The translations under genes and the position numbers were made by a program. From a virus, in IMG/VR virus record IMGVR_UViG_3300021185_003853, positions 1-64,000 of that record: a stretch of 64,000 bases of DNA. One strand, written 5' to 3'. The notes beneath the pieces were generated by a model that searched no databases, had not been told where the DNA came from, and was given only the letters and a program-made list of their open reading frames with translations. Below are positions 1 through 34,902 of the stretch, piece after piece (the first letter of the stretch is position 1; each line of letters starts with the position of its first letter).

Positions 1-156
1 GCCACAACTGATTCTGGTTATGAGAACTTGGGATTGAACTACTCTGATATAAGAGCGTTCATTCAACAGCAAGAGGCAATTCTAGCCGCCTATAGGAGTT
101 ACTATCTAGAAGCAGAAGAAGAATTTAATGAAGCGAATGGTATCGAAGATGAGTAA
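1..156 (+). CDS. 3' end of a conserved T4-like phage protein (possibly spanin-like), partial
   Basis: Frame 1 is open from base 1 (ATTDSGYENLGLNYSDIRAFIQQQEAILAAYRSYY...EDE*) to TAA at 154-156; the function is a guess. Confidence 0.5.
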   Translation, partial: ATTDSGYENLGLNYSDIRAFIQQQEAILAAYRSYYLEAEEEFNEANGIEDE

Positions 157-469
157 AAGATACGCAGTTGTGACAACGATTCAAACATTTAAGCATAGAT
201 ATGTGGTCTCTGAAGATCGCCTTCAAAGTCTAAATGAGGACTCACCTGCTGAATTGGGATGGGCAGACGACTGTGTGACTTGTGACCAAATCGATGAGTT
301 CTCACAAAAGTACATAGACGAGTCTATCATTGAATCTAAGTGGATGAAAGAAGACGATGTTCTTTCGATGTTTGATGAAGATCCTGAATTGGAATACCTA
401 AAAGATTGGGACAAAGAACAAAGACTGACCTACATTAATCATGGTCTTATACTTGACAAAGATGATTAG
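149..469 (+). CDS. hypothetical protein
   Basis: ORF 128..469; ATG at 149 overlaps the end of the upstream gene and is the more likely start. Confidence 0.7.
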   Translation: MSKRYAVVTTIQTFKHRYVVSEDRLQSLNEDSPAELGWADDCVTCDQIDEFSQKYIDESIIESKWMKEDDVLSMFDEDPELEYLKDWDKEQRLTYINHGLILDKDD

Positions 470-481
470 TTCTGATATACT
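453..481 (+). promoter_or_regulatory. sigma70-type early promoter
   Basis: TTGACA-N17-TATACT. Confidence 0.75.
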
Positions 482-502
482 ATTGAAAAATTAGAGGATA
501 TT

Positions 503-745
503 ATGGTAACAATATTCGGTATAGACACTTGTTTTTATTGCTTGAGATGCAAACAGTTATGTCAGGCGCTAGAGATTGAGTATGAATACTTAAATCTGTC
601 AGAATCAGAAAATGGATTAAGGTTTACACAACTTTTTTCTGAAGAGGGACAGATACCGCAAGTTTTATGGGAGGGTGAACACATTGGTGGATACCCTGAA
701 TTAAAAAGTAAGATTGATGAATATATTAATGGAGAAGTAAAATGA
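503..745 (+). CDS. glutaredoxin-like protein
   Basis: CFYC motif, IPQV cis-Pro motif, HIGGY. Confidence 0.85.
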   Translation: MVTIFGIDTCFYCLRCKQLCQALEIEYEYLNLSESENGLRFTQLFSEEGQIPQVLWEGEHIGGYPELKSKIDEYINGEVK

Positions 746-1011
746 ATAGAAGTGAAGTGATTGAGAAACTAAAGTCTGATATTATAAATATAACATTCAC
801 TAAAGTAGATGGCTCTACTAGAAACATGAGAGCCACTTTAAGTGAAAATGAAATACCTACTGCATCTTCTGCTAGTACTGCTATGAAAGCACCTCAAACA
901 TATCAAGCCGTTTGGGATACAGAAGCAAGCGGTTGGAGATCATTCAAGTGGGATAGCATCAAAGAAGTAAATGGTGTTGCCACTCCAAACGGAGTATCAA
1001 TCAAAGGATAA
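742..1011 (+). CDS. WYL_2/DUF2693-like SH3 beta-barrel protein
   Basis: FTKVDGSTRNMRATL and VWDTEASGWRSFKWDSI motifs. Confidence 0.7.
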   Translation: MNRSEVIEKLKSDIINITFTKVDGSTRNMRATLSENEIPTASSASTAMKAPQTYQAVWDTEASGWRSFKWDSIKEVNGVATPNGVSIKG

Positions 1012-1014
1012 AAA

Positions 1015-1308
1015 ATGGATAGCAATAAACTCATAGAAAAACTTAAAAAGGGATATGTCAAAATTAAGTCGAAGACTAATGCTGGACAGCAAATTTCTGC
1101 CTACACATTAAATCGAGGACTTATAGATGGTCAAGTTTCTATGGGTGGAAGAAATGTGGCTAATCCGTTTAGTAAATCGCTTCGAAAGCCTTATAGGTAT
1201 CTTGATGTTTTCGAAAAGTCCACTAATTCTTGGACTTTGATTAGATGGGATAAGGTTGTAGAAGTTGATGGCATCAAGACAAAAAGCGGTATAGAATATA
1301 TCGGTTGA
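1015..1308 (+). CDS. diverged paralogue of the preceding SH3-like protein
   Basis: IEKLK...YTL...VFEKSTNSWTLIRWDKVVEVDG aligns by eye with 742..1011. Confidence 0.6.
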   Translation: MDSNKLIEKLKKGYVKIKSKTNAGQQISAYTLNRGLIDGQVSMGGRNVANPFSKSLRKPYRYLDVFEKSTNSWTLIRWDKVVEVDGIKTKSGIEYIG

Positions 1309-1333
1309 CACTTTCTTGATTATGTGATATAAT
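1305..1333 (+). promoter_or_regulatory. sigma70-type early promoter
   Basis: TTGACA-N17-TATAAT. Confidence 0.85.
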
Positions 1334-1360
1334 GGTTGTTTTAATTGATTGGAGTAAAAT

Positions 1361-2515
1361 ATGGCTAAAAGTAAAAAGAGGGCTATACCGAGAAGAGGTA
1401 ATGCGGCTAAGTTGGCTGAAGAGTCTAACATTGGTCGAGAAACCATTGATTGGTCGTCAGTAAAGCCTGAAGAGTATAGAAAGAATATACTCGAAACTTT
1501 ACGCCACTACGGATACTTTTACGAGAAGAAATCTTATGTCTCGTGGTCTATAGAATGGATAAAGGCAAATCGCCCTAGTGATCTAAAAACATTCAAAGCA
1601 AGCGAAGACTGGAGAGTATCTGCCACATTAGCAGGTCTAATGAAGATGCAGTTGATGGGTGCAGAACTAGAACAGTCTGATATTGATTTCATTGAAAGTA
1701 GTGTGGCAAGAATACTACAAATAGGTAAAATGAATATAGAGAATGTTGTAGAAGAAGTTGAAGAAGATAAAGAACCCGTCAAAAGAAAGAACCCATCCGA
1801 ACTTCTAAAAGAAAAGACTCTAAACATTACGGGCGAGATCGAGGGTTTCATCGATGACTATCTAGATGGAACTCTTGATAAGAAGTTCTCATTATATACC
1901 CATTTAAAAACTATTGATGCCGCCGCACAAACTGCCAGAGATATCGCTAAGTTCTACAGAGAAATGGAAGCAGAGTTATTAGAACTGACAGTAAACAAAG
2001 ATGCTGAGTTAGTAGAAGGCTATAGCAGTCTCTCTACCAAAGAGCAGAAGGGTTTACTTAAATTGATATCTGGTTTTGTTAGTGATGCTGAGAAGTTTGT
2101 CTTGAGTAAAAAGGCAAATAGAAAACCTCGTGCCAAGAAAGCCACACCTGCCACAAAGCAAGTAGCAAAGGTTATCTATCAAAAAGAATGCGCTGACTTT
2201 AAAATATCTAGCACTAGTCCAGCCTACATAGTTGGCGCCACTGAAGTTTATCTGTTCAATACCAAAACTAGAGTTATTAAGTATCTAGTTACAGATAATA
2301 AAGACGGCTTTATAGTCAGTGGTACGACTGTCAAAAACTATGACGAAGAACTGTCATTCAAGAAAAAACTCAGAAAGCCTGAAGAGACAATCGATTCTAT
2401 CAACAAAGTAACAAAGTTGAGAGCATTGAAAGCATTGAAGGCTTTGAAAACCAAAGCAAGTTCAACTGACGGTAGAATAAACGCAGACACTGTTATTCTA
2501 AAGGTGAATAAGTGA
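1361..2515 (+). CDS. conserved hypothetical T4-like phage protein
   Basis: 384-aa ORF with GGAG SD and basic C-terminus (KKLRKPEE, DGRINADTVILKV). Confidence 0.75.
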   Translation: MAKSKKRAIPRRGNAAKLAEESNIGRETIDWSSVKPEEYRKNILETLRHYGYFYEKKSYVSWSIEWIKANRPSDLKTFKASEDWRVSATLAGLMKMQLMGAELEQSDIDFIESSVARILQIGKMNIENVVEEVEEDKEPVKRKNPSELLKEKTLNITGEIEGFIDDYLDGTLDKKFSLYTHLKTIDAAAQTARDIAKFYREMEAELLELTVNKDAELVEGYSSLSTKEQKGLLKLISGFVSDAEKFVLSKKANRKPRAKKATPATKQVAKVIYQKECADFKISSTSPAYIVGATEVYLFNTKTRVIKYLVTDNKDGFIVSGTTVKNYDEELSFKKKLRKPEETIDSINKVTKLRALKALKALKTKASSTDGRINADTVILKVNK

Positions 2516-2901
2516 AAGATAACATAATCGATTTTAATAAAGCCTTTGAGAAAAGAAAGAGGCTTGAAAAGGAGATTGATGATCTAATACTAGAGAGTGA
2601 TGAAGAGATAATAGATTTCTTTTCTACACTAAATGCGAGAGAAACCGTTTGGGCTTTGAGAGGATTTGATTTTGATATCGAAAGTGATCCAAGATCGATG
2701 CTAGACATCCTCACGATAATAGAAGCAACGAAGTCTCTAATGTGGAGAGCAAGAGGAAAGGATTATGCATTTCAAACTTTTGCCGATACAGTATTCGAAA
2801 GTGTGCAAGAAGAAAGTGGCGTTCAAATGGAACATATGTTAGACCGCTTTATAGTTGACATGGAAGAATACTACGCCAGTCTAGATGACTATGATATGTA
2901 A
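2512..2901 (+). CDS. hypothetical protein
   Basis: 129-aa acidic ORF coupled to the upstream stop. Confidence 0.7.
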   Translation: MKDNIIDFNKAFEKRKRLEKEIDDLILESDEEIIDFFSTLNARETVWALRGFDFDIESDPRSMLDILTIIEATKSLMWRARGKDYAFQTFADTVFESVQEESGVQMEHMLDRFIVDMEEYYASLDDYDM

Positions 2902-2909
2902 AAAAAGAC

Positions 2910-2939
2910 TTGACAAAACCCATTAACTTATGTTATAGT
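2910..2939 (+). promoter_or_regulatory. sigma70-type promoter
   Basis: TTGACA-N18-TATAGT with extended TG. Confidence 0.7.
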
Positions 2940-2971
2940 AGTCAATACTAAATTAAGTTAGGAGATATAAA

Positions 2972-3823
2972 ATGATATTGGTTGATCTGAACCAAGTCAT
3001 GATCGCAAATATGATGATGCAAATTGGTAATCATCATAATGCTGAGATTGACGAAGGTATGCTAAGGCATATGATTTTAAATACATTACGAGCCAATCGC
3101 AAGAAGTTTACATCTGAGTTTGGTGAACTCGTAATCTGCTGTGACGATAAGAACTATTGGCGCAGACGGATATATCCATACTACAAAGCGAATCGTAAAA
3201 AGACTAGAGATAGTTCCGAAATGGATTGGAATGCTATCTTTATTGCTTTGAACAACATTCGTGAAGAACTGAAAGAGTTCTTTCCATATAAAGTTATTCA
3301 AGTAGAAACCTGCGAAGCAGATGATATCATTGGTGTTATCACGCACGAAGAGGGTACTGAACTAAACGCAGGTGAGCCTATACTGATTCTGTCCGGTGAT
3401 AAGGATTATATACAATTGCATAAGTATGCTAATGTGAAGCAATATGATCCAGTCAGAAAGCGTTGGATTTCTAATGCAAATCCAGATAAATATCTTGCTG
3501 AACATATTATCAAGGGTGATTCAGGTGATGGCATTCCAAATGTCTTGTCTGAAGATAATGCTTTGGTTATGGGTACAAGACAACGCCCAATAACACAAAA
3601 GCGACTTGCTGAGTGGGCTGATATAAATAATATGAACGATGAGGTAAAACGGAACTACATGAGAAACAAGGCTTTGATTGATTTGAATGAAGTTCCTCAG
3701 TCAATGAAAGAAGAAATTCTTTCGCTTTGGCATAAAGATGATGGTAAAGATAGAAGTCAGTTGCTAAATTACTTTATCAAAAATAAACTGAGAAATTTAA
3801 TGGAATGTATAACGGAGTTTTAA
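2972..3823 (+). CDS. rnh: T4-type RNase H (5'-3' exonuclease)
   Basis: ILVDLNQ, YYKANRK, EADDIIG, LSGDKDYIQL, KGDSGDGIPN motifs. Confidence 0.93.
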   Translation: MILVDLNQVMIANMMMQIGNHHNAEIDEGMLRHMILNTLRANRKKFTSEFGELVICCDDKNYWRRRIYPYYKANRKKTRDSSEMDWNAIFIALNNIREELKEFFPYKVIQVETCEADDIIGVITHEEGTELNAGEPILILSGDKDYIQLHKYANVKQYDPVRKRWISNANPDKYLAEHIIKGDSGDGIPNVLSEDNALVMGTRQRPITQKRLAEWADINNMNDEVKRNYMRNKALIDLNEVPQSMKEEILSLWHKDDGKDRSQLLNYFIKNKLRNLMECITEF

Positions 3824-3824
3824 A

Positions 3825-4304
3825 ATGACTACATTATCTCTGGCAGAGATTGTTAACACTGCCCGAAAAGCTGAGACAGTTGAAGAGAAGGTTGCAATTC
3901 TAAAGAAACACAATAGCAAACAATTGAAAGATGTTTTGATTCTTATGTGTGACAAGAGGTGGACTTTTGATTTACCAGACACGCCTCCTCCATACGAAGA
4001 GTCTGTCATTCATGAGTCACATGGAATGCTATATCGTGAAACTAGAAAGTTTCCTTACTTCGTGAAGGAGATGCCACAAGGCCAGAATTTAGAAAGAATG
4101 AGAAAAGAAGCACTATTCATTCAGTTGCTAGAAACAGTCGATGCAGAAGATGCTAAACTTGTTCTTCGTATGATTGCGAAAGAGCCGTATCCAGATTTGG
4201 CACCTGAGGTTATTAATCAGGCACTTGGAAACATAATTGTTGATCCAATTCCAGTTAAAAGGGGTCGTGGTCGACCTAAGAAATCAGAAGCACCGGTATC
4301 ATAA
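3825..4304 (+). CDS. conserved T4-like phage hypothetical protein with C-terminal AT-hook-like motif
   Basis: FDLPDTPPPY, RKEALFIQLLE; ends KRGRGRPKK. Confidence 0.7.
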   Translation: MTTLSLAEIVNTARKAETVEEKVAILKKHNSKQLKDVLILMCDKRWTFDLPDTPPPYEESVIHESHGMLYRETRKFPYFVKEMPQGQNLERMRKEALFIQLLETVDAEDAKLVLRMIAKEPYPDLAPEVINQALGNIIVDPIPVKRGRGRPKKSEAPVS

Positions 4305-4318
4305 TAAGGTAAGGTAAG

Positions 4319-4462
4319 ATGGGTAAAAATAAGAGTAAGAAATTTCGTGAGTGGATGGATGAGGACTTTGATAGTAAAAAGGACTCAAAGCGATACGACA
4401 AGCGTAAAGCAAAGATTCAAGAAGCGAGACGAAACAAGCGAAAGAACCGAGATTCTTTCTAA
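4319..4462 (+). CDS. small basic hypothetical protein (47 aa)
   Basis: Hand translation MGKNKSKKFREWMDEDF...NRDSF*; AAGG upstream. Confidence 0.6.
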   Translation: MGKNKSKKFREWMDEDFDSKKDSKRYDKRKAKIQEARRNKRKNRDSF

Positions 4463-4489
4463 ACACAACATATATTATGGAGTTATAGT

Positions 4490-5002
4490 ATGATATCAGC
4501 AGTAGGGACTATGTTCCCAGACTTTGAATTGACAGGCGTAAACAAAGATAATGAGTTCGAGAAAGTTAACAATACTAACTTGATTGGCAAATGGTCTGTA
4601 GTTTACTTCTACCCAAAAGACTTTACTTTCATCTGTCCAACTGAAATTGCGGCATTTGACGAACTAACTGCACACGCCAATGTACTTGGTATTAGTGGCG
4701 ATAACGAGTTCTGCAAACTCGCATGGAAGAAAGACAACGATCTAATCGGTAATATTCAGCACACACTACTCGCAGACTGTGGTCTAAGACTCGCAAGAGA
4801 TTGTGGTGTCAAAGAACACTCTGAACAAGTTGCTTATCGTGCAACATTCATTCTAGACGAAGTTGGTGTGATTCAACACTGTTCTGTAAATGCATTAGAT
4901 ACTGGTCGTAATGCCAAAGAGATACTTCGTACCCTGAAAGCACTACAAGCAGGTGGTCTAACTGGCTGTTCATGGAACCCAGGTGATCAATTCGTAGCAT
5001 AA
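4490..5002 (+). CDS. ahpC: 2-Cys peroxiredoxin (AhpC type)
   Basis: FYPKDFTFICPTE peroxidatic motif; GRN; C-terminal GCSW. Confidence 0.93.
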   Translation: MISAVGTMFPDFELTGVNKDNEFEKVNNTNLIGKWSVVYFYPKDFTFICPTEIAAFDELTAHANVLGISGDNEFCKLAWKKDNDLIGNIQHTLLADCGLRLARDCGVKEHSEQVAYRATFILDEVGVIQHCSVNALDTGRNAKEILRTLKALQAGGLTGCSWNPGDQFVA

Positions 5003-5007
5003 AAGTC

Positions 5008-5037
5008 TTGACTTTACCTATACAAGTATGTTATAAT
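5008..5037 (+). promoter_or_regulatory. sigma70-type promoter
   Basis: TTGACT-N18-TATAAT, extended TG. Confidence 0.75.
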
Positions 5038-5066
5038 ACTTTGTATTTTGATGATAAGGAAGTAAA

Positions 5067-5642
5067 TTGAATAACAAGATAATAGTAGTTGATTGTGATG
5101 GTGTTCTTCTTGATTGGGAACATAGCTTCAAACTCTGGATGAAAGAGAAGGGTTATGAAGTAAAGAACGATGTTGAGTATTCTATGGCTAAATCTTACGA
5201 GATGGAAAAGCCAGAGATGAAAAAGTTGATTCGCCATTTTAACGAGAGCGCAACGATGTGTTGCTTACCGCCTCTTCGAGATGCTGTGAAGTATGTTCGC
5301 AAGATTCACGAAGAGTTAGGTTATGTCTTTCACTGTGTCACTAGTATGACTCTTGATCGTCACGCCAACAAGTTGAGAGAACAAAACTTGAGCAACCTGT
5401 TCGGTGAAACAGCTTTTGAGAAAGTTCAATGTCTTGACACTGGTGCTGACAAAGACGATGCACTTCTTCCTTATCTTGATAGTGGTTGTGTCTGGGTCGA
5501 AGATAAGATTAAGAACGCTGAGTTAGGTGATCGTTTAGGAATGAGTGCTGTACTGATGAAGCATGACCACCAAAACGATTATACTAACGATGCAATCCCC
5601 GCAGTAGAAAGTTGGAAAGAAATCTATGAAATGCTCTCATAA
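5067..5642 (+). CDS. HAD-family phosphatase/nucleotidase (T4 gp30.2-like)
   Basis: DCDGVLLDW motif I; WVEDK motif IV. Confidence 0.8.
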   Translation: MNNKIIVVDCDGVLLDWEHSFKLWMKEKGYEVKNDVEYSMAKSYEMEKPEMKKLIRHFNESATMCCLPPLRDAVKYVRKIHEELGYVFHCVTSMTLDRHANKLREQNLSNLFGETAFEKVQCLDTGADKDDALLPYLDSGCVWVEDKIKNAELGDRLGMSAVLMKHDHQNDYTNDAIPAVESWKEIYEMLS

Positions 5643-5655
5643 GGGCTTCATTTGA

Positions 5656-5663
5656 TATAAATA
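5656..5663 (+). promoter_or_regulatory. T4-type late promoter
   Basis: TATAAATA upstream of the FmdB-phoH-PAAR-fibre run. Confidence 0.7.
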
Positions 5664-5686
5664 TCATTATGGTTAGATGTGAGTTA

Positions 5687-5714
5687 GGGCAATCTAAGGA
5701 TTGTCCATTTTTTT
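5687..5714 (+). terminator. Rho-independent terminator-like hairpin
   Basis: GGGCAATC-TAAG-GATTGTCC followed by A and T7. Confidence 0.55.
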
Positions 5715-5731
5715 AGCAATCGGAGAATAGT

Positions 5732-5965
5732 ATGCCTATATATCAATACAAAAATGAAGAAACCGGTGAAGTGAGTGATAAGTTCATGTCCATTTCCGAT
5801 ATGGAGCAATTCGAAATCGACAACCCCCACATGAAGAAAATGATACAGCCCGTTGCATTCGGTGATGCGATGCGTATGGGTGTAAGAAAAACTGACGACA
5901 GTTTTAATGATTTGATGAAGAACATTAAAAAGCACAATGCGGGGTCTACAATAAAAACAAGATAA
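5732..5965 (+). CDS. FmdB-like small regulatory protein
   Basis: MPIYQYKNEETGE...NPH; the usual neighbour of phoH in T4-like phages. Confidence 0.65.
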   Translation: MPIYQYKNEETGEVSDKFMSISDMEQFEIDNPHMKKMIQPVAFGDAMRMGVRKTDDSFNDLMKNIKKHNAGSTIKTR

Positions 5966-5977
5966 GGATTTTAATTA

Positions 5978-6733: not shown

Positions 6734-6735
6734 TA

Positions 6736-8033: not shown

Positions 8034-8050
8034 TTAATTAGGATTAACAA

Positions 8051-11000
8051 ATGGCACTAACAAAAAGATCAGAAAAAGGAGTATCATTAACATACACCGA
8101 AATGGATGCAAACTTCACTCATTTGGGTGGAGATGGTAGCTATCAATTTCCTGCGACTGACGGTACAGCTACCCATGTTTTAGCAACGGATGGTAACGGG
8201 CAACTTAGTTTTGTTCCTCAAACTGGTGGCGGTGGCGGTGGTATCGCACTAACCGATCTTAGTGTTACTACAGGCTCTGCTTCTGGTAGTGGATCATTAT
8301 CATACAATAGCACCACTGGAGCATTTACATTCGCTTCACCTGATCTTTCTACTTACTTAACAACTGTTGCTTTTTCTGACCTTACTGGCAAACCCACAAC
8401 GATTGCAGGTTACGGCATCACTGATGCTTTTGACGGTGCGTTTAGTTCACTAACAGGAAAGCCCACAACGATTTCTGGCTATGGAATAACAGATGCTTTT
8501 GATGGAGCATTCAGTTCACTAACAGGAAAACCTACTACCATTTCTGGTTACGGCATTACAGATGCTTTTGATGGTGCTACTTCAAGTTTAACTGGCGATA
8601 TCGATCTTGCAACTCAAGTTACTGGAATACTCCCTGTTGGTAATATGGCTGCCACTGCATTGACAACGGTGCAAACTGCCGCTAATGAATCAGCACAACT
8701 TGCTTTGACAACAGAAGAGGGAGATGTAGTTGTTAGGTCAGACGAAGCCAAAACATATATGCATAATGGTGGTTCTGCAGGAACAATGGCAGATTTTACA
8801 TTGCTATCTACTCCTACAGATTCTGTTACAAGTGTTGACGGAAACACAGGTGCAGTTACGACACTACAATTAGGCACATCATCAACGACTGCACTTGCTG
8901 GCGATACCACATTTGCTTTCTCTGATATTACATCAAAGCCTACAACAATTTCTGGCTATGGTATTACCGATGCATTAGCAATTGGCACATCATCAACAAC
9001 TGCAATGGCAGGTGACACAACATTTGCATTTGCTGATATCACAAGCAAACCTACAACGATTGCGGGTTACGGCATCACTGATTCTATTGTCACATCTGAT
9101 TCATCGATTGATGCACAACCTATAAAGCAACTATACACAAATCAAGCCGCATTTCCTGCCGCAGGCACTTGGCATGGTGCGCTTGCTCATAGTCACTCAG
9201 ACGGAGCAATGTTTTTCGCTCATGGTGGATCATGGGTTCAGTTGGCCAACAATAGCAGTATTCCAACTGTGCCAAGTACTGTTAGCTCCTTCACAAACGA
9301 CTCGAACTATTTGACGACTGTTGCCTTTGCTGATTTAACAGGCAAACCTACTACCATTTCTGGTTATGGTATTACTGATGCTCTAGCGATTGGTACATCA
9401 TCAACAACAGCGATGGCAGGCGACACTACATTTGCCTTTGCTGATATTACAAGTAAGCCTACAACGATATCTGGCTATGGAATAACTGATGCATTGGCGA
9501 TTGGTACGACATCAACAACTGCCCTAGCAGGTAATACCACATTTGCATTTAGTGACATTACTTCAACACCGACTACAATAAGTGGTTATGGCATTACAGA
9601 TGCCTTTGATGGAGCAACTTCAAGTTTGACGGGTAATATTGATCTTGCATCACAAGTAACTGGAACATTGCCTGTCGGTAATATGGCCGCTACAGCACTC
9701 ACAACAGTCCAAACAGCATCAAGCGAATCTGCACAATTAGCACTCACAGCAGAAGAAGGTGATGTAGTTGTCAGATCAGATGAGAATAAAACATATATGC
9801 ACAATGGCGGTTCTGCAGGAACAATGGCAGATTTTACACTTCTTGCGACACCGACTGATGCAGTAACGAGTGTTGACGGCAATACTGGCGTAGTTACAAC
9901 ATTGCAAATTGGCACATCTGGCACGACAGCAATGGCAGGTAATACTACTTTTGCATTTGCTGACATCACCAGTAAGCCAACTACAATAAGTGGTTATGGC
10001 ATTACTGATGCGTTAGAGTTAGGTACGACTTCTAGTACAGCATTAGCAGGTGATACTGCATTACTAGAATTAGGAACATCATCAACGACTGCACTTGCAG
10101 GAAACACAACATCTTTTGGTGGAAATGCATCAACTGTAACACTTGGTACTAGTACAGGTCCACAAACAATTAACATTCAAGCTGAAACGCCATCATCAGG
10201 TCAAAATCAGTTTATTAATATTGGCACAGGTGGATCTGCAGGTAGTTCAAAAACAATCAATATAGGTACTACAACCACCGGTTATCATACTAAAAATATT
10301 AATATGGGTAACTCAAGTACATCATCAGGTACATCAAGTAACATTACGATGTATGGCACAGTGTTGATGGATGATGCCACTGTTGCCGCTACTCACACAA
10401 TTGGTGGAACAACGCAAACCGGTACAATCACTATTGGTCGTAGTACGCAATCACAAACGATTAATATAGGTACTGGTACTGTTGCCAGTTCCAAAACTAA
10501 GACAATTAATATTGGTACTGGTAATTCAAGTGGGGCAATCACAAACATCAATATAGGTCCGACAAATACATCGGCAACTCGTGCAATCGATATTAATGGC
10601 AACTTAACTGTTGATGGTACTACACAATTTGATCATATGGTGACATTCAAGTCAGATGCATCAACAGCTAATGTATACGATCAAATAGTAAGTTTTCAAG
10701 CAAAGGGTACTAGCACAAGTTGGTATGAGGCAGCCAGAATCGCAACATTAGGTTCTGGTAGCGCACCATCAAGAATGATTATTGGACAAGATAATGCCGC
10801 ACTGACATTCTTTGATGGGTTTGGTTCAAGATATGTTTACCCTGCTCATGCTGACACAGGCGCAGGCACAAATGGCGTTTGTGATTTGGGTTCTTATAGT
10901 GCAAGATTTAAACTTGGTCGATTCTCAAGTGGCACAACAACATCTTCTGATAGAAACGAAAAGCGAGATATTGAAGAATTGACTGCCGCTGAGTTAAGAG

Positions 11001-14881: not shown

Positions 14882-14957
14882 GGGCCCATAGCATAACGGT
14901 TAATGCATCCGACTCATAATCGGCAGACTCTTGGTTCAAATCCAAGTGGGCCCACCA
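14882..14957 (+). tRNA. tRNA with CAT anticodon (probably Ile2, lysidine-type; Met not excluded)
   Basis: GGGCCCA/TGGGCCC acceptor stem, CCGA-CTCATAA-TCGG anticodon arm, GGTTCAAATCC T-arm, encoded CCA. Confidence 0.92.
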
Positions 14958-15026
14958 GACTTTAGAGAACATAGCCTTGGACCGTTATGTCAGAATGACT
15001 GCGCTGTAAAGACAGTCCCGATTTAT

Positions 15027-15101
15027 TCCGAAGTAGCACAATGGTAGTGCATCTGACTGTTAATCAGAGGGTTGTTGGTTCGAGTCCAACCTTCGGAGCC
15101 A
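15027..15101 (+). tRNA. tRNA-Asn (GTT)
   Basis: TCCGAAG/CTTCGGA acceptor stem, TCTGA-CTGTTAA-TCAGA anticodon arm, GGTTCGAGTCC, encoded CCA. Confidence 0.95.
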
Positions 15102-17337: not shown

Positions 17338-17443
17338 AGAAGAAAAAGAGGTAGCAAAGCCTACCCAAGAAGAAACGGAATACTGCATCTGCGGTAAGCC
17401 ACTAACACAAGAATGCTACGAGCATATGGCTAAGGGATATTAA
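17330..17443 (+). CDS. small putative Zn-binding peptide (37 aa)
   Basis: MTKEE...[20 protein letters not shown]; TAATG-coupled to glyA. Confidence 0.55.
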
Positions 17444-18582
17444 TGGACACAAGAATCGCCAAGATTTATAACAAAGAGATTGATCGTCAAATGCACACGG
17501 TCGAACTTATCGCAAGTGAGAACTTTGCGAGTAAAGCAGTAATGGATTTAGCAGGTAGCCTGTTTACGAACAAGTACGCAGAAGGCTATCCCGGCAAGCG
17601 TTATTATAATGGTTGCGAAAACATGGATGAGATCGAAGAACTAGCGATTGAAACTTTGTGTAAATTGTATGGTTCTAACTTTGCGAATGTGCAACCACAT
17701 TGTGGTGCTAACGCAAACACTGCTGTATATCAAGCATTCTTGAAGCCAGGCGATACGATTCTTGGAATGGATTTAGCAAGTGGTGGTCATCTAAGTCATG
17801 GTAGTCCACCAAATATATCTGGTAAGATTTACAATGCTGTGTCTTATGGTGTTGATGAGAATGGCTGGATTGACTACGATCAAGTGAGAAGTCTAGCCCA
17901 TGAACACAAGCCTAAGATGATTGTAGCGGGCGCAAGTGCATATCCACGACAGATCGACTGGGCAGAGTTTAGAGATATTGCAGATGAGATTGGTGCATAT
18001 TTACTCGTAGATATGGCACACTATTCTGGTCTGATTGCAGGTGGTGTTTATGGAAACCCAGTGCCATTTGCTGATGTTGTTACATCGACTACACACAAGA
18101 CTCTTCGAGGACCTCGTGGTGGAATCATTCTATGGAACAACGAAGATTATACGAGAAAGATTAATAGTGCGATATTCCCAGGCACTCAAGGCGGACCTCT
18201 GATGCATATCATTGCCGCAAAGGCTCAATGCTTTATTGAAGCAAGCCAGATGGAGTTCTCAAAATACGCATTTGATGTAATCGAAAATGCTAAAGCAATG
18301 TGTGAAGTATTTGAGCAAAGAGGTTTGCCAGTACAGACAGACGGAACTGATTCGCACATTATTCTAATGGATTTGAGTGAGAGTAAGCATAGTGGTCGAG
18401 AAGCGGCTGATCTACTCGAAGATAATGAAATTACTGTGAATAAGAATGGTGTACCAAACGACCCACGATCTTTTGTAGAGACAAGTGGCATTCGAATTGG
18501 TACTGCCGCAGAGACTACTCGTGGTCATGATGTCGAGTGGTTCAAAGAACTAGCAAATAGAATTGCGGATATCTTAGCATGA
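17443..18582 (+). CDS. glyA: serine hydroxymethyltransferase
   Basis: [48 protein letters not shown] (PLP Lys), [15 protein letters not shown]. Confidence 0.97.
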
Positions 18583-22589: not shown

Positions 22590-22593
22590 TGTG

Positions 22594-27243: not shown

Positions 27244-27267
27244 ATTTTAATATTGACGGAGTAAATT

Positions 27268-27594: not shown

Positions 27595-27597
27595 AAA

Positions 27598-27620
27598 GAG
27601 CCCCTTAATTGGGGCTTTTT
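27598..27620 (+). terminator. Rho-independent terminator
   Basis: GAGCCCC-TTAATT-GGGGCTT-TTT. Confidence 0.8.
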
Positions 27621-27711
27621 CATATCAGTCTCAATAATCTCGCAAAATAATTTCTAGTCTTCAGTGTTTTAAACTACTAAATACTATATAATAATAGTAT
27701 TGAGGTAGGTT

Positions 27712-27990
27712 ATGGAAATATTGACACTTATTGCCGATGTAGGATTTCCTATTGCATCGGCTCTTGCAGGTGGATTTTTCGTGTTTGTTACACTCAAGTT
27801 TATCTTGAATGGTGTGCTTAGTGACATTTGTACACAAAGGGGCTTTGTAAAAGCACTAGATAATAGAGTGAAAACAATGAATAACGAGGTCGTGAGAATC
27901 GATCTTCAGATGTGTCATGCTTTTGGAGTTGAACCAGACTTAACAGTCGTAGCGAGGGCAGACGGACAGCAAGACGCAAGAAAGGATTAG
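27712..27990 (+). CDS. single-pass membrane coiled-coil protein A
   Basis: DVGFPI + TM + LDNRVKTMNNEVVRID. Confidence 0.75.
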   Translation: MEILTLIADVGFPIASALAGGFFVFVTLKFILNGVLSDICTQRGFVKALDNRVKTMNNEVVRIDLQMCHAFGVEPDLTVVARADGQQDARKD

Positions 27991-27993
27991 ATT

Positions 27994-28290
27994 ATGGAAG
28001 AATTAGATATAGGAGCAATGATCTCACAGTACGGCTTTCCAATTATAGCCGCTGTTGGATTAGGATACTTCATATATTACATATGGAGTTGGGTTACTGA
28101 AGAAGTAGACCCAGTGATATCAGAGTCTCATATGACTCTCATAGCACTAATTGACAGAATAAGAATGTTAGATAATGATTTGATAAGACTGAGAACTAAA
28201 CTAGATATGATTTTACAGCAACAGGAAATGATGAAGAATGAAAAAGATAATAACTCTGATACTACTATCGATATCACTGACGAGTCATAG
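27994..28290 (+). CDS. single-pass membrane coiled-coil protein B (paralogue of A)
   Basis: QYGFPI + TM + LIDRIRMLDNDLIRL. Confidence 0.75.
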   Translation: MEELDIGAMISQYGFPIIAAVGLGYFIYYIWSWVTEEVDPVISESHMTLIALIDRIRMLDNDLIRLRTKLDMILQQQEMMKNEKDNNSDTTIDITDES

Positions 28291-28732
28291 TAGCGAAATA
28301 ACTTTCGGATTCAAAAGCCCATCATTTAGTGGTGTTGGCACTGGTTCGCATTATCTTACGATTGAGAACCAAGAACATAGTCGAAAGAAATCAATCGAAG
28401 ATGCACTCGAAGCGGCTCGTAAAGCGGCTGAAAGAGAAGCAGAAAACACCACACTCGCTAAGTTCATTCGTAACCTAGAGAGTCGTATCTATTCACAGTT
28501 GTCAAAGCAACTTGTGGACAATATGTTTAGTAACGAAGATGCAGTCACATTCGGGTCATTTACACTTGAAGGGTCTACAGTTGCCTATCAGGTTATGACG
28601 AATGATGCAGGCGAAGATTATATCGAGATGAGAATTGTAGATACAGAAGGTTCAGAAACTATTATTGAAATACCAATTGGTACTGGTAACTTTGGTTCAA
28701 TAGATAGCGGGGAAGATGATGTTGCGTTTTAG
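28238..28732 (+). CDS. csgF: curli assembly protein CsgF-like
   Basis: Signal peptide then EITFGFKSPSFSG (cf. CsgF FQFRNPNFGG); FIRNLESRIYSQLSKQL; adjacent to csgG. Confidence 0.8.
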   Translation: MKKIITLILLSISLTSHSSEITFGFKSPSFSGVGTGSHYLTIENQEHSRKKSIEDALEAARKAAEREAENTTLAKFIRNLESRIYSQLSKQLVDNMFSNEDAVTFGSFTLEGSTVAYQVMTNDAGEDYIEMRIVDTEGSETIIEIPIGTGNFGSIDSGEDDVAF

Positions 28733-29621
28733 TTTACTACTAGCGGTATCTATTATCACTGGGTGCGCTCAGATTCCAAAATGGTCTGAGAATCCACAGG
28801 ATTGCTCACATCTGAAAAATGCTAGGGACTATATCTGTGTAGACGAACCAGAAGTGGTTGATATGCCCGCATATGTAAAATTACTTGAAGTTCCACCTGC
28901 TACCAAAATGCCAGTTGTAGCAGTATATGGATTCAGAGACTTAACAGGTCAAAGAAAGAATAGAGACGGAATTGCAGATTTTAGTACTGCTGTCACACAA
29001 GGCGGTACTGAAATGCTAATAGATGCACTCAAAACAGCAGGGAAAGGGACTTGGTTTCGTGTTGTGGAGAGACAGGGTATCGACAATCTAGTAAGAGAAA
29101 GACAGATTGTTAGATCAACCCGAAAAGAATACGCTGACGAAAAATCTCAAGGGTTAGGACCTTTGTTATTTGCAGGTATGATTATCGAAGGCGGTATAAT
29201 TGGTTATGATACAAATCTTCAATCAGGTGGTAGAGGTGCTAGAGCATTAGGTATTGCGCTTTCAAGGCAATATCGTAAAGATGTCGTGACTGTTTCTGTG
29301 AGGGCTGTCTCAGTCCTGACAGGAGAAGTTCTGCTCAATGTTCAAGCAAAGAAGAGTATTCTTAGTTATGGGTCGGGTGGTGATTTATTCCGATTCTACG
29401 AAGAAGGAACTAAGCTAGTTGAATATGAAGATGGTGTGGGAAATAATGAGTCAGTGACTTATGCGGTACGGACAGCCATTGAGGCAGCCGTGCTTGAACT
29501 AATATATCAGGGACATGATAGAAGTCTCTGGTCAGTAGGTGAAGGTCATCGTCATCCTCATTTGAATGATGGAACGAATGATGGTCATAGCCTAGAAGAA
29601 GAGGTAAAGGAAGATGAATAG
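28716..29621 (+). CDS. csgG: curli secretion channel CsgG-like lipoprotein
   Basis: Lipobox ITGC; VAVYGFRDLTGQRK, FSTAVTQG, WFRVVER, LVRERQIVR, EGGIIGYD, NESVTYAVRTAIEAAV. Confidence 0.93.
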   Translation: MMLRFSLLLAVSIITGCAQIPKWSENPQDCSHLKNARDYICVDEPEVVDMPAYVKLLEVPPATKMPVVAVYGFRDLTGQRKNRDGIADFSTAVTQGGTEMLIDALKTAGKGTWFRVVERQGIDNLVRERQIVRSTRKEYADEKSQGLGPLLFAGMIIEGGIIGYDTNLQSGGRGARALGIALSRQYRKDVVTVSVRAVSVLTGEVLLNVQAKKSILSYGSGGDLFRFYEEGTKLVEYEDGVGNNESVTYAVRTAIEAAVLELIYQGHDRSLWSVGEGHRHPHLNDGTNDGHSLEEEVKEDE

Positions 29622-30339
29622 GTACTTAATAGGACTAGTAGCATTGCTTTCTAGTTTCGTTTATGCTGGCGCATCTGATGATAACGAAATCAACATCGAA
29701 CAATCTGGTGATACATTTACATTGTATATCGATCAGGTAGGTTATGGTAACAAAGTAGGACTTGATAATTTTGAAACATCGTCAAGTGCTTCGCCTATAA
29801 CTGGTTCATCGTTGAATTTCGATATTGATCAAATTGGTAACGAGAACTTATTGTTCGGTGAAGTAACTGCCGATAGTTCAACTTACAATCTGATCTGGAC
29901 TGGTGATTCTAACTCATGGGATTGGATGATTGGCGATGTAGGTTCTGCTGATTCGACAAACATTGATGTTAGCATAACTGGTGACTCCAACACAATGGAT
30001 TTTGATCAGGGTTCTGTAGCAAGTGCAGAAAGACTTGATCTTGATTTAACTGTGATTGGCAGTAGCAATGTATTTGATGTAGATGTTGAAACAGATGATG
30101 TAACATTCACAGTTGATGTTACTGGTGATGGCAACAACATCAATACACTACAGAACGATGGATTCTACCAAACATTAACTCTTGACCTAACTGGAGACAA
30201 TGCTGATGTTGATATTAATCAACTTAGTGGTACTTGTCCACAGGGTGTTACTAGTTGTAAAGGTATAATTACATTAGATGTTACTTCTGAAAATGCTACT
30301 ATCCAGATTAACCAGAAAGATAACGCAGGCGACAGTTAA
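29614..30339 (+). CDS. curlin-like beta-repeat secreted protein 1
   Basis: Signal peptide; repeated (Q/T)xGxxN units (IDQVGYGN, IDQIGNEN, TGDSN twice, IGSSN, TGDGN); C-terminal Cys pair. Confidence 0.75.
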   Translation: MNRYLIGLVALLSSFVYAGASDDNEINIEQSGDTFTLYIDQVGYGNKVGLDNFETSSSASPITGSSLNFDIDQIGNENLLFGEVTADSSTYNLIWTGDSNSWDWMIGDVGSADSTNIDVSITGDSNTMDFDQGSVASAERLDLDLTVIGSSNVFDVDVETDDVTFTVDVTGDGNNINTLQNDGFYQTLTLDLTGDNADVDINQLSGTCPQGVTSCKGIITLDVTSENATIQINQKDNAGDS

Positions 30340-31435
30340 TGCATTGCTACTAGTGGGAGTTGCCGCTCAAGGCGCTTCCATTGGTGGTATTGTAGAGTCA
30401 ACTGGAGTCGGTTCTCTTGAACGAGAGACATCAGATACAGTAGTTGCGACTGTGGGCGAGGAGATTCAACTCAACGATACCGCTCAAACTGCAAAAGGTA
30501 GAATGCTAATCAAGTTCCTTGATGAGGCAGAACTATCTCTAATCGAACATACCAAAGTCTATATCGACAAAGTTTACTACGACCCGGATCCCTCCAAATC
30601 CAAAATGGTCATGAAGATGGCTTTAGGCACCGCTAGGTTTGCCTCTGGGCGTCTTGGAATGGTGAACAAATCAAATATAGACATATCAACACCAACGGCA
30701 ACGATTGCTGTTCGTGGCACAGATTTCACAACGACTATTGATGAACTTGGTAGATCATTAGTCATTCTATTACCAGATGAAAATGGTGACCCGTCTGGTG
30801 AGATCATCGTATCAAACGAAGCGGGTTCAGTGACACTCACTGAAGCATATGCCGCAACAATGGTTTCGAGTGTATCAACAATGCCTACTCAAAAAGTAAT
30901 CATAAATAACATCACGCCTGCGCTTATAGACAATATGTTTATCGTCAACGCACCACAAGAGGTAAGACAGGCAATTGAAGAGCAGATTCAAGAAGACGAT
31001 AATTTGGACATGGGTTCATTAGATGCTGACTTCCTAGAGTTTGATGAGTTAGAAAAGGATTTTGATGACTATGCAGGTGGAGAAGTTTACACCAGATTAG
31101 ATTATGATTTTCTAGGGTCTAATCTATTAACTGACTTGCTTGATGTGATCGATGAATTAATCCGCACAATGGCACAACTCGAAGATGTACAAGAGGGAGC
31201 AGGTAATACAGCAATACGACTGACTGGTGCTAAATGGGGATTCAATGATGATAGTCAGTACGCCATATTTGAAGAAGATGGTGGTATCGTATTTCATCGT
31301 GATGTTAGAGGTGTTATCAGTTTGAAGTTTGCTAAAGGTGGAGCAATAACTGTAGTGACAGAAGTCGAAGGTTATGTAGGCGAAATCACTGCTGACGGCG
31401 GAGAAGACATCAACGTCTTTATTAAACAGGATTAA
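30278..31435 (+). CDS. FecR-domain periplasmic protein
   Basis: Hydrophobic N-terminus; DTAQTAKGRMLIKFLD...LIEHTKVYID; ISTPTATIAVRGTDF; start uncertain. Confidence 0.85.
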   Translation: MLLLKMLLSRLTRKITQATVNALLLVGVAAQGASIGGIVESTGVGSLERETSDTVVATVGEEIQLNDTAQTAKGRMLIKFLDEAELSLIEHTKVYIDKVYYDPDPSKSKMVMKMALGTARFASGRLGMVNKSNIDISTPTATIAVRGTDFTTTIDELGRSLVILLPDENGDPSGEIIVSNEAGSVTLTEAYAATMVSSVSTMPTQKVIINNITPALIDNMFIVNAPQEVRQAIEEQIQEDDNLDMGSLDADFLEFDELEKDFDDYAGGEVYTRLDYDFLGSNLLTDLLDVIDELIRTMAQLEDVQEGAGNTAIRLTGAKWGFNDDSQYAIFEEDGGIVFHRDVRGVISLKFAKGGAITVVTEVEGYVGEITADGGEDINVFIKQD

Positions 31436-31436
31436 T

Positions 31437-32150
31437 ATGAAGGACATAGAAGAATACTTGTTATACGTTATTACTCCAATTCTTTTATTGGTGTATATGT
31501 TTGCCTCGGGTAAAGCAAAAGCAGACAACGAAATCTTTATCGATCAATCAGGCAATAACTTTGCGATTGGTGTTGAACAAATAGGCGCTAACAACAACGC
31601 AACAGTCAACGCTGATGGAACAACTCAACAACTACTTATTGTTCAATATAATGACACTACAGTAGATAATGATGTAACAGTCAATACTACAGGTGCTGAC
31701 AATGGTATCAAACTATGTCAAGGGTGTGCCTTTGATTATCCAGAAAGTTACACCAATCACGACTATTGGTACGATAACCTGGAAGGTGGCGGTCACTCAA
31801 TCGATGTGACTGTTACTGGAGATAGAAATGGTATCTCTGCTCAACAAACAAATCAAGGCAGTACAAACGGTCACAGTTACGATCTAAATTTAACTGGAGA
31901 CGATAACGAAGTTACGACCATTCAACAGCACGATGGTGTTAAGACTATAGACCTTACAATCTACAATGATGACAACGATGTGTTTGTTCGTCAGAAAGGG
32001 GCAGGTTCAACTCATACTGCTACGATAGAACTTGACGGCACATATGGCACTGACCTGACACTCAAACAATTCAATTCAACAGCAACTTACTCACTCACGC
32101 AAAATTGTGTCACTGTTGGTGGTTGCTCTATCTCGGTGACTCAACAATGA
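31437..32150 (+). CDS. curlin-like beta-repeat secreted protein 2
   Basis: Signal peptide (AKA-DNEIFIDQSGNN), EQIGANN, TGADN, TGDRN, TGDDN repeats; C-terminal CVTVGGC. Confidence 0.75.
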   Translation: MKDIEEYLLYVITPILLLVYMFASGKAKADNEIFIDQSGNNFAIGVEQIGANNNATVNADGTTQQLLIVQYNDTTVDNDVTVNTTGADNGIKLCQGCAFDYPESYTNHDYWYDNLEGGGHSIDVTVTGDRNGISAQQTNQGSTNGHSYDLNLTGDDNEVTTIQQHDGVKTIDLTIYNDDNDVFVRQKGAGSTHTATIELDGTYGTDLTLKQFNSTATYSLTQNCVTVGGCSISVTQQ

Positions 32151-34174
32151 CAAAGTGGTGGTCAGTTCTTCCAATTATTTTCATATTTTGTGCATTAAAA
32201 GTCACAGAATCCTACTTTGTAAAATCGATAGAATATACATACTACGACCAGTTGCAACGTGGCCATCAAACTACTAAAGTGAATGACATTGTACTGGTAA
32301 ACATAGATGAAAATGCAATTAAAAAGGAAGGACAATACCCTTGGCCAAGACAGACAGTCGCCAAATACATAAACAATGCACCGATCAACTCACTGCTAGT
32401 CTCCACTATGATCTGGTCAGAGCCAGATCGCTTTGCAGGGGACAAGGAACTATCAAGATCCCTAAGTCAAAAAGCATTGGTATTAGCAAGCGCCCCTACT
32501 CGCCAAACTACTACAACTGAGTTAGGGATATATGCCAATGTTTCGACATTCGGCAAACCGACAAGTACGCTGATTAACTACAGTGGGTTATTGACACCCA
32601 TACAAGATCTCGCACAATATGCAATGGGAGTCGGCGCTGTGTCTGCTGAAGTCGATCAACCTTCAGGCGTTCTACGTAGAGTCCCATTAATCGTTAGCAT
32701 TAATGGACAACCTTATCCTTCATTAGGACTTGATACTGTTCGTGTATTTTTAGGTGAACCATCATATACTATTAAGAACAATGAACTCGGAGTGGAGTGG
32801 ATTCGTTTAGGTAAACAAGATCCTATTACAACCCAACCGACATCTGAACTGCCTGTTGCATTCTGGCATGACTTCGAACAGATATCTATTCTTGATCCAA
32901 TGCCTGAGGGTAAGGTATTGATCTTCGGGGTGACTGCAGAAGGATATTCGAATCCTGTTCCGACACCAACAGGTCCTATGTATCCTCATGAGATTCAAGC
33001 ACAACAAATCTACACGCTGATGTCTGGTGTCGAGATACTACGACCCGACTATACAAGATTCCTCGAACTATTGATGATCCTTATTGCTTGTACGGGCATA
33101 CTAATCGCAGTTTATCGCTTGGGTACGATTGGTGCGTGTATCACAAGCATTGCATTGTTGGGTGCATCACCAGCGATAGGATATTATGCATGGACAAATA
33201 GTTACTTCTTCCTTGATATTATCTGGCCAACAGTTGCCGGGGTGGTCGTATTCGCACAAAGTTCATTCAACAAATACTACACGACTTACAAACTCAAAGA
33301 ACAAATCAAGAAACAATTTGGGACATACTTATCTCCTGCTATGGTGCAAAAATTACAAGATGATCCGTCATTGTTAAGGTTGGGTGGTGAGACAAGAAAT
33401 ATGACATTCCTGTTCTGTGACATTCGTGGATTCACTCCAATATCAGAACAATACAAAACAAACCCACAAGGATTGACGGAACTCGTCAATCGATTCCTGA
33501 CACCGATGACAGACATTATTATGGACAACGAAGGAACCATTGATAAGTACATGGGTGACTGCATTATGGCGTTTTGGAATGCCCCCTTAGACGTGCAGTA
33601 TCAGGAGTATATGGCGGTTAAAACGAGTGTAGAGATGTATCAGCACCTTGACATACTCAACGCAGAACTCGAAAGCGAAGGGTTATTGCCCATTAATATC
33701 GGTGTTGGTATCAATACAGGTGAAGTTGTTGTGGGTAATATGGGGTCAAATCAACGCTTTGATTACTCTGTATTGGGTGATGCTGTAAACCTAGCGGCAC
33801 GATTAGAAGGACAAACAAAGTCATATGGTGTCAAAACACTTATAGGTGAGGACACTAAAACACAGCTCAACGAACAATACTTTACTCTTGAGTTAGATAA
33901 TCTTGCTGTTAAGGGTAAGACAGAACCTGTTAAGATATACACTGTATTGACTGAAGCAATAGATGTTGAGATAGAAATGCATGAAGAGATGATGAGAGCA
34001 TATTACGCAAAACAATTCGATCAAGCGATAGCATTCTGTGAGGATCTAAAGAGATGCTTCAAAGGTGAAATTGCTGATTATTACAGAATGTGGCAAGACA
34101 GATGTAGGTCGCTAGAAAACACTCTAGACAAGGGTGAAGCGTGGGACGGCGTGTATCGAGCAACATCTAAATAA
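32147..34174 (+). CDS. CHASE2-domain class III adenylate cyclase
   Basis: IVLVNIDE..I...GQYPWPR (CHASE2), three TMs, FCDIRGFT, IDKYMGDCIMAFW, FDYSVLGDAVNLAARLEG; start ATG 32147. Confidence 0.93.
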   Translation: MTKWWSVLPIIFIFCALKVTESYFVKSIEYTYYDQLQRGHQTTKVNDIVLVNIDENAIKKEGQYPWPRQTVAKYINNAPINSLLVSTMIWSEPDRFAGDKELSRSLSQKALVLASAPTRQTTTTELGIYANVSTFGKPTSTLINYSGLLTPIQDLAQYAMGVGAVSAEVDQPSGVLRRVPLIVSINGQPYPSLGLDTVRVFLGEPSYTIKNNELGVEWIRLGKQDPITTQPTSELPVAFWHDFEQISILDPMPEGKVLIFGVTAEGYSNPVPTPTGPMYPHEIQAQQIYTLMSGVEILRPDYTRFLELLMILIACTGILIAVYRLGTIGACITSIALLGASPAIGYYAWTNSYFFLDIIWPTVAGVVVFAQSSFNKYYTTYKLKEQIKKQFGTYLSPAMVQKLQDDPSLLRLGGETRNMTFLFCDIRGFTPISEQYKTNPQGLTELVNRFLTPMTDIIMDNEGTIDKYMGDCIMAFWNAPLDVQYQEYMAVKTSVEMYQHLDILNAELESEGLLPINIGVGINTGEVVVGNMGSNQRFDYSVLGDAVNLAARLEGQTKSYGVKTLIGEDTKTQLNEQYFTLELDNLAVKGKTEPVKIYTVLTEAIDVEIEMHEEMMRAYYAKQFDQAIAFCEDLKRCFKGEIADYYRMWQDRCRSLENTLDKGEAWDGVYRATSK

Positions 34175-34234
34175 CACGACAAATATGACATATTGTACTT
34201 GAATTAAGGCATTACATGACAAATATGACGTATT
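34174..34234 (+). repeat. 21-bp direct repeat pair (possible operator)
   Basis: ACACGACAAATATGACATATT (34174) and ACATGACAAATATGACGTATT (34214). Confidence 0.7.
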
Positions 34235-34253
34235 AAATAAATGAAAAAACCGG

Positions 34254-34282
34254 TTGACATATACCTCAATTTGATGTATAAT
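34254..34282 (+). promoter_or_regulatory. sigma70-type promoter
   Basis: TTGACA-N17-TATAAT. Confidence 0.8.
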
Positions 34283-34311
34283 TCATTATAGAATGAAAAA
34301 AGGTATCTACT

Positions 34312-34902
34312 ATGAAATCTAAGTTGAAAGCTGCGCAGTTGATTATCGGTATTCTAGCGTTATTATTTATCTCTATTATTGTATTGATGTATCCTGTTAA
34401 ACACAATCAAGAGTTTTATGCTATTGAACAGGTTACAGTGCCTGAACAAAGCAAGCATCTTACACTTGATAATATTGAATGTATGGCACTAAACATCTAC
34501 CATGAATCACGAAATCAAACTCTAGGCGGACGACTTGCCGTAGGTTATGTTACTTTAAATCGTGTTAAGAGTAATAAGTATCCTGACACTATTTGCGGTG
34601 TCGTGAAACAAGCAAAAATAAACAAATGGTTCCTCGAAAGACACAACAAAAAAGTTCCCTCTAGAAACAAGTGTCAATTTTCTTGGTATTGCGATGGTAA
34701 GTCAGATCAACCATTAGAATCAAACGCATGGGAGGAAGCATATCTACTTGCTATCCATGTTATAAATATGTACGATACTATATCAGATCCCACAAAAGGT
34801 TCGATCATGTATCACAGCAATAAAGTGAAACCTTACTGGACAGATGCTTATAAACATCTTGTCACAATTGATGACCACATTTTTTATGGGAGTGTGAAAT
34901 GA
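34312..34902 (+). CDS. SleB-like cell wall hydrolase (Hydrolase_2), membrane-anchored
   Basis: CMALNIYHESR, VTLNRV, YPDTICGVV, CQFSWYCDG, IDDHIFY. Confidence 0.9.
   Translation: MKSKLKAAQLIIGILALLFISIIVLMYPVKHNQEFYAIEQVTVPEQSKHLTLDNIECMALNIYHESRNQTLGGRLAVGYVTLNRVKSNKYPDTICGVVKQAKINKWFLERHNKKVPSRNKCQFSWYCDGKSDQPLESNAWEEAYLLAIHVINMYDTISDPTKGSIMYHSNKVKPYWTDAYKHLVTIDDHIFYGSVK

Follow-up and report, generated by a model that had tools for sequence, protein, structure and literature searches.

The viral contig IMGVR_UViG_3300021185_003853, whose first 64,000 nucleotides (the window) we analyzed together with the rest of its 114,312 bp, is very probably a hybrid of two phage lineages joined in homologous sequence. 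Its gene content places it among marine T4-like myoviruses akin to pelagimyophages and cyanomyoviruses. The left arm of the contig (1-30,409, hereinafter A-type) and its right arm (31,413-64,000 and on to the contig end at 114,312, B-type) are distinguished by the short DNA words they avoid and by their codon usage. The hybrid origin follows from four observations: the arms differ in motifs and codon usage, related phages are uniform at the same locus, contigs of each pure type exist, and the nearest relatives switch from one arm to the other.

The discontinuity is apparent already for a single word, GCWGC. A preceding sequence-only reading had described this word as scarce to the left of ~34.2 kb and common to the right, and the counts bear it out: six copies in 1-34,329 (at positions 8648, 10730, 21952, 25789, 26056, and 29484) vs. 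40 in 34,330-64,000, and 112 in the other 80 kb of the whole contig. Markov models of orders 1-3 predict 32-41 copies on the left and 93-121 on the right. As a stricter control, synonymous codons were permuted within each arm (left, up to 30,400; right, from 32,100 on), which preserves both proteins and codon usage. With this control, six copies were observed in the left arm vs. 40.8 +/- 4.0 expected (z = -8.8), and 112 vs. 121.5 +/- 5.6 in the right arm, a difference that is not significant. The GCWGC step is real and far past chance. The described spelling of alanine pairs also holds: GCC or GCG comes first in 42 of 48 left-arm pairs, though these codons make up only 29% of all alanine codons, and in 37 of 135 right-arm pairs. 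In the proposed comparison with GCSGC, the latter turned out to be over-represented in the two arms alike (z = 6.6 and 7.0); its enrichment is therefore not specific to the left one.

The switch extends well past GCWGC. The outcome is the same whether all 4-6-mers are scanned, known type II restriction targets are counted, or the codon-shuffled control is applied; relative to this control, the arms differ in at least eight motif classes. The left arm avoids ACGT (0 observed vs. 61 expected), GCWGC (6 vs. 41), AGATCT/RGATCY (0 vs. 10 for AGATCT), RCATGY (0 vs. 15), AGCT (20 vs. 98), GGCC, TTAA, and AATT (~0.6 of expectation for the last two), and is rich in AGCC/GGCT (173 vs. 127) and AGACT/AGTCT (78 vs. 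56). The right arm has ACGT (170 vs. 233), GCWGC (112 vs. 122), and AGATCT (21 vs. 25) at or near expectation, and 33 copies of RCATGY vs. 35 expected. It is instead depleted in the whole RGCY set, that is, in AGCC/GGCT (101 vs. 292) as well as in AGCT and GGCC, which are reduced in both arms, and in AGACT/AGTCT (25 vs. 102; 3 vs. 31 for CAGACT). Codon usage also differs broadly, with left vs. right frequencies of 0.49 and 0.31 for AAG, 0.54 and 0.34 for GGT, and 0.20 and 0.39 for TTA. Gene-by-gene typing assigns each gene to one type, and no islands of the other type are seen across the 114 kb.

Some words are lacking in both arms: CGCG (left, 0 vs. 27; right, 0 vs. 74; ~100 expected in the whole contig), CGACG/CGTCG (2 vs. 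23 and 1 vs. 63; in total, 3 vs. ~85), and AACGTT (0 vs. 7 and 0 vs. 29; in total, 0 vs. ~36). We considered the shared absence of CGCG and CGACG as proof of a single genome and rejected it, since ~40% of related loci jointly lack these words. Few members of the family avoid AGACT/AGTCT as the right arm and its relatives L238-L240 do: the ratio of observed to expected counts is below 0.2 in 1% of loci.

These patterns have the features of phage restriction-site avoidance: the words are depleted relative to a null model that retains proteins and codon usage, and the Markov models agree. As in other phages, the contig is depleted in short type II palindromes (ACGT, GCWGC, CGCG, AGCT, GGCC, AGATCT, AACGTT, and RCATGY) beyond the codon and protein effect, in a lineage-specific manner. 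The cognate enzymes are presumably of the TseI/ApeKI, MaeII, BstUI, BglII, NspI, AclI, and CviJI types, RGCY being the target of CviJI-type enzymes. The contig departs from the usual situation in two respects. It holds two incompatible avoidance sets with a sharp border between them, and two of the avoided words, CGACG and AGACT, are non-palindromic; we know of no enzyme that could be named for these two.

The border lies further to the left than had been supposed. GCWGC alone leaves it unplaced between 29,484 and 34,330; the denser motifs and a 5-mer model give ~30.4-31.4 kb. The joint likelihood of six motif classes reaches its maximum at 30,650 (95% credible interval, 29,650-31,350), and change points of individual motifs fall within 29.6-31.4 kb. 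The leftmost of these, that of AGCC/GGCT at 29.6 kb, is softened by the absence of this word from the FecR gene of the A-type contig L082 as well. A 5-mer Markov classifier, trained on stretches of each arm far from the border, switches from one type to the other at 31,377, and the first ACGT after a 16-kb gap, at 31,413, is a hard right bound. The seam interval is thus 29,650-31,413, from the six-motif likelihood and the first ACGT. Because the motif likelihood, the 5-mer change point, and the ACGT bound converge, the seam is placed in the FecR-like gene or at its end, within the curli/FecR/cyclase block; the gene (30,278-31,435, plus strand; Pfam FecR, phrog_37870) covers most of the seam interval. 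Comparison with L083, the closest left-type contig, shows ~99% identity from 29.0 kb to 30,409 and ~86% from 30,437 on, that is, an identity break at 30,410-30,437; exact stretches of 85-93 bp common with relatives stand directly before it (30,324-30,436).

The sequence-only reading had tied the switch to an intergenic repeat after the cyclase gene. The repeat does exist, as two 24-nt direct copies, 88% alike (34,171-34,194 and 34,211-34,234, plus strand, in the spacer 3' of the cyclase gene). The seam is ~3-4 kb to the left of 34.2 kb and not in this spacer, so the coincidence does not hold. Identity drops vs. L081, L082, and L084 at 30.9 and 32.1 kb were considered as extra breakpoints and rejected as confounded by gene-specific conservation. 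For example, cobS is likewise only 83% identical to that of L081, and the drops were not used in placing the seam.

The lineage evidence comes from 317 related loci (L001-L317) collected from IMG/VR and metagenomes with the FecR-like protein, the cyclase, and gp32 as queries. The block at 27.7-33.9 kb is syntenic in all relatives, with blastn identities of 68-93%. Of these, ~35 loci extend for 5 kb or more to either side of FecR, and in them ACGT, GCWGC, CGCG, AGCC/GGCT, and AGACT occur at the same density to its left and right, though the densities vary greatly between lineages. Only one of 101 distinct loci of at least 14 kb contains an internal switch of comparable strength, and that in a single motif, whereas the window shows three at once. 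This locus, L174:1-21986, has eight ACGT within 4.7 kb of its start, followed by 17 kb free of the word, and may be another hybrid or misjoin.

Both signatures are found unmixed in other contigs. Left-type relatives include L081, L082, L091, L096, L099, L100, and L266-L269. Among them, L081, L082, L091, L096, and L100 span cobS through the block, and L099 is left-type across the equivalent of 19-36 kb. Over 6.5 kb of L082, the cyclase gene included, ACGT is missing, vs. six copies in the window. The left signature is also seen in the gp32 or ho1 regions of L266-L269 and L274, and the right signature, including AGACT avoidance, in the gp32 regions of L238-L240. Because the ~35 relatives are uniform and pure contigs of both types exist, avoidance is a property of the lineage and not of the genome region.

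The nearest relatives change accordingly across the seam. Left-arm genes are 85-98% identical to those of left-type contigs (closest to L081, L091, and L096), with 93% amino acid identity for cobS. From 36.7 kb rightward, the genes have their closest match in L238 (77-95% identity). The gp32 of the window is 93% identical to that of the right-type L238 and only 67-68% to those of contigs with the left signature. Nearest relatives that are discordant across a breakpoint lying in homologous sequence, with the gene order kept, are features of a mosaic genome. A cyclase search in IMG/VR yielded no relative above 78% identity, and no right-type copy of the block was therefore obtained.

Avoidance patterns in this phage family are very diverse by lineage, and each is uniform in its contig. 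For example, L050 and L065 lack ACGT, few RGCY and CGCG sites occur in L003, L022, and L079, and relatives with 33-37% G+C mostly show little avoidance.

Four origins of such a border can be considered. Selection within a single genome could depend on position, if the first-entering or early-expressed part avoided restriction sites and the rest were shielded by an early anti-restriction function. The avoided region does form one contiguous block at one contig end, and the first-step-transfer DNA of phage T5 would be a parallel. Nevertheless, this explanation is very unlikely. Whatever motifs they avoid, relatives in which the genes are ordered alike carry a single signature to the left and right of the locus, and A-type contigs extend the left signature into the ho1 and gp32 region; since avoidance is a lineage property, the idea of a protected late-entering part falls away. 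Protection would also leave unexplained the right arm's own avoidance of RGCY and AGACT and its codon usage. Moreover, T4-like phages usually package circularly permuted DNA, which has no fixed first end. Still less probable is that the left 31 kb are a host-derived or otherwise foreign island bearing the palindrome avoidance of the host itself. Host-like genes are indeed present on the left (CsgF/CsgG, glyA, and a MoxR-like ATPase), but the arm is syntenic with related phages, has PHROG matches throughout, and consists of typical myovirus genes (phoH, cobS, cobT-like, fibre, exonucleases, and tRNAs). The curli genes themselves belong to a known pelagimyophage operon (PMC7029224).

The two remaining origins, a joining of genomes evolved under different restriction regimes and a chimeric contig, are those offered together in the sequence-only reading. 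As a pair they are supported, because the arms carry different multi-motif signatures, each found unmixed in independent metagenome contigs, and because ~35 relatives are uniform at the locus and the nearest relatives change clade. We give a natural join by real homologous recombination about an even chance, and consider it slightly likelier than an assembly error. The rival is that two collinear, co-occurring phages were stitched through a near-identical FecR-like stretch, with no such molecule in nature, and this has an appreciable probability, if below even. The evidence from sequencing runs consists of Logan contigs of public runs compared with the window, and gaps in their cover are uninformative. 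In two runs from two studies (X1 and X2), Logan contigs of both arms show 0-2 differences each. The depths of these near-identical contigs are 7.1-7.8 on the left and 7.23 on the right in X2, and 13.5-17.9 on the left and 17.1 at 40.4-41 kb in X1. A contig in ENA encodes a FecR protein that is 99% identical and has all the alleles separating the window from left-type relatives, and the next open reading frame (ORF) is encoded by ENA contigs at 97-99% identity. Such agreement at similar depth in independent studies, and such matches in other assemblies, speak for a natural join, as does the shuffling of FecR alleles among dozens of independent JGI, ENA, and Logan contigs. In addition, a shared stretch of ~90 bp is normally bridged correctly by paired reads, and the gene order on both sides is the family norm, with nothing structurally wrong.

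A considerable body of observations weighs against a natural join. The ENA matches are to proteins, and do not prove the DNA signature of their flanks. Logan contigs bridge only 29.0-30.96 kb across the junction, and none of the independent contigs examined at the DNA level combines the two signatures, A-type to one side and B-type to the other. The depth of the block is 2-4 times that of its flanks in all four runs, which means that several strains collapse there, and many contigs end within it (L019, L083, L084, and L102); this is a classic assembly tangle with a high risk of misjoining. The exact 85-93 bp stretches shared with relatives (30,324-30,436) flank the break, so that the join runs through sequence common to co-occurring genomes, as a misjoin would. 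Depth ratios of the arms differ by run, with values of 0.45 to 3: beside the seam, the right arm has ~2 times the depth of the left arm in X1, and in X3 the ratio is ~3:1 with the left higher. In X2, the right arm at 34.8-36.3 kb is ~3% divergent vs. ~0.1% for the left. Hybrids are rare among the relatives, as seen from the single switch in 101 loci. Neither arm has drifted toward the signature of the other. Finally, a real hybrid would be exposed to both presumed enzyme sets, with ~170 ACGT, 112 GCWGC, 173 AGCC/GGCT, and 78 AGACT sites. Two junction-proximal 27-28-mers (from 31,424 and 30,437) have no match in IMG/VR, which is not evidence of absence. The finding of the exact FecR protein on this contig only, with the exact gp32 on 25, was at first taken for a sign of a chimera; it was set aside as a clustering effect, as there are many relatives at 93-99%.

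The most plausible history is as follows. The first ~30.5 kb very probably derive from a clade purged of ACGT, GCWGC, AGATCT, RCATGY, and other palindromes, and the remaining ~84 kb from another clade, in which RGCY and AGACT were purged instead. Each purge would most simply be a record of the restriction enzymes of the clade's hosts. If the join is natural, co-infecting phages would have undergone homologous recombination within the block, where their sequences are highly similar, and so recently that neither arm drifted to the other's signature. In its full form, a living hybrid phage produced by a very recent exchange of at least 30 kb between marine T4-like clades adapted to hosts with different restriction enzymes, this scenario falls somewhat short of an even chance. 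T4-like phages recombine very actively.

The block itself also offers evidence for a natural join. Its left half is far more alike among lineages than the flanks; for instance, L081 is 83% identical to the window in cobS, 92-97% at 27.7-30.7 kb, and 77% in the cyclase gene. Such raised similarity is the pattern expected of a recombination hot spot. The FecR-like protein has 93-99% identity to more than 60 distinct database proteins, and its variable patches (residues 8-22, 54-58, 181-185, 227-243, and 291-299) combine in many ways, which reflects either intense recombination or strain-level consensus assembly. Contigs of X2 and X3 contain a joint at 30,016-30,138 that goes back on itself with 21-25 extra letters, which suggests a tandem-repeat length variant in the first curlin-like ORF (29,614-30,339) of other strains.

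The contig can be compared with two known kinds of composite sequence. As in mosaic phage genomes formed by homologous or homeologous recombination, the break is in the most conserved stretch of a syntenic block, the gene order is unchanged, and the nearest relatives change across the break. It differs in that the exchange is very large (at least 30 kb vs. at least 84 kb), the partners share no more than ~70-80% identity beyond the block, and the join is not seen in an independent DNA molecule. With inter-genome chimeric contigs from metagenomes and viromes it shares a seam in sequence common to co-occurring strains, raised depth, and many contig ends; the depth match of both arms in two studies and the near-identical ENA junction proteins are unexpected for a one-off misjoin. 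Restriction avoidance in phages, mosaic phages, and chimeric contigs are all known, and the contig is a clear and well-controlled case of a known discontinuity; in the literature, we found no paper on a seam between two such signatures.

The main practical value of multi-motif avoidance signatures is that they reveal seams invisible to synteny and gene content. If the join is natural, it represents large-scale gene flow between phage clades facing different host defences, and the signature becomes a marker for mapping recombination in metagenomes from sequence only. A living hybrid would show that such signatures are able to place recombination events in time and along the genome, even across host-range boundaries, in uncultured phages. 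If the join is an assembly error, the 114-kb record is unfit for use as one genome, and the signature offers an inexpensive way to spot chimeric viral contigs that slip through checks of synteny and gene content. Either way, lineage-specific avoidance patterns that are uniform within contigs may help to link uncultured phages to their hosts.

The record originates from a JGI/IMG metagenome, and the DNA of the window is also present in many marine metagenomes. It is a single contig without a terminal repeat, and its last gene runs off the end; for these two reasons, it is incomplete. Its gene set includes gp32, gp59, baseplate hub and wedge proteins, phoH, cobS, a cobT-like gene, heme oxygenase, and bilin reductase, as well as a CsgF/CsgG "curli" operon, after which come genes for a FecR-like protein and a CHASE2 class III cyclase. 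In the left arm, we find phoH, an S74-type fibre gene, exonucleases, tRNA-Met and tRNA-Asn genes (14,882-15,101), glyA, an S8 peptidase, cobT-like, cobS, CsgF, and CsgG. The right arm contains the cyclase, a cell-wall hydrolase, heme oxygenase, bilin reductase, gp59, gp32, and baseplate and fibre genes. The conserved block (27,712-34,174, plus strand), defined by the Pfam families CsgF, CsgG, FecR, CHASE2, and Guanylate_cyc and by blastn synteny, comprises two small ORFs, CsgF, CsgG, the first curlin-like ORF, the FecR-like gene, a second curlin-like ORF, and the CHASE2 class III cyclase. The CsgF/CsgG operon is thus contiguous here with the FecR-like and cyclase genes, and the full set is syntenic in more than 150 related loci.

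Among cultured phages, the closest kin are pelagimyophage-like phages, such as Pelagibacter phage HTVC008M, Mosig, and Methylophilales phage Melnitz, and cyanomyoviruses. They have in common with the contig the CHASE2 cyclase (34-38% amino acid identity), the curli operon, cobS/cobT-like genes, phoH, gp32, and baseplate genes; of these, it is the cyclase and the curli operon that link the contig to HTVC008M and Melnitz. Protein identities to cultured phages are all low, and the best match of a baseplate-wedge protein is to Sinorhizobium phage phiN3 (39%). Pelagimyophages are known to carry the curli operon, and their SAR11 hosts almost never encode restriction systems (PMC7029224), so that the heavy restriction avoidance of the contig is a poor fit to such hosts. 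Together with a G+C content of 39%, vs. ~33-37% in the lower-G+C related contigs, this suggests a host other than SAR11.

Two other loci of the window deserve mention. The left arm contains a full-length serine hydroxymethyltransferase gene, glyA (17,443-18,582; Pfam SHMT, E = 2e-149), which is also the sole match in a DNA search of a phage collection at near and distant sensitivity that otherwise gave nothing useful. In the right arm, an ORF of 721 amino acids on the minus strand (39,529-41,694) belongs to no Pfam family and has a G+C content of 0.45, the maximum in the window. It contains 13 GCWGC and is overlapped by two long ORFs on the opposite strand; its sole fair relative is found in L238 at 57% identity, and it looks hypervariable.

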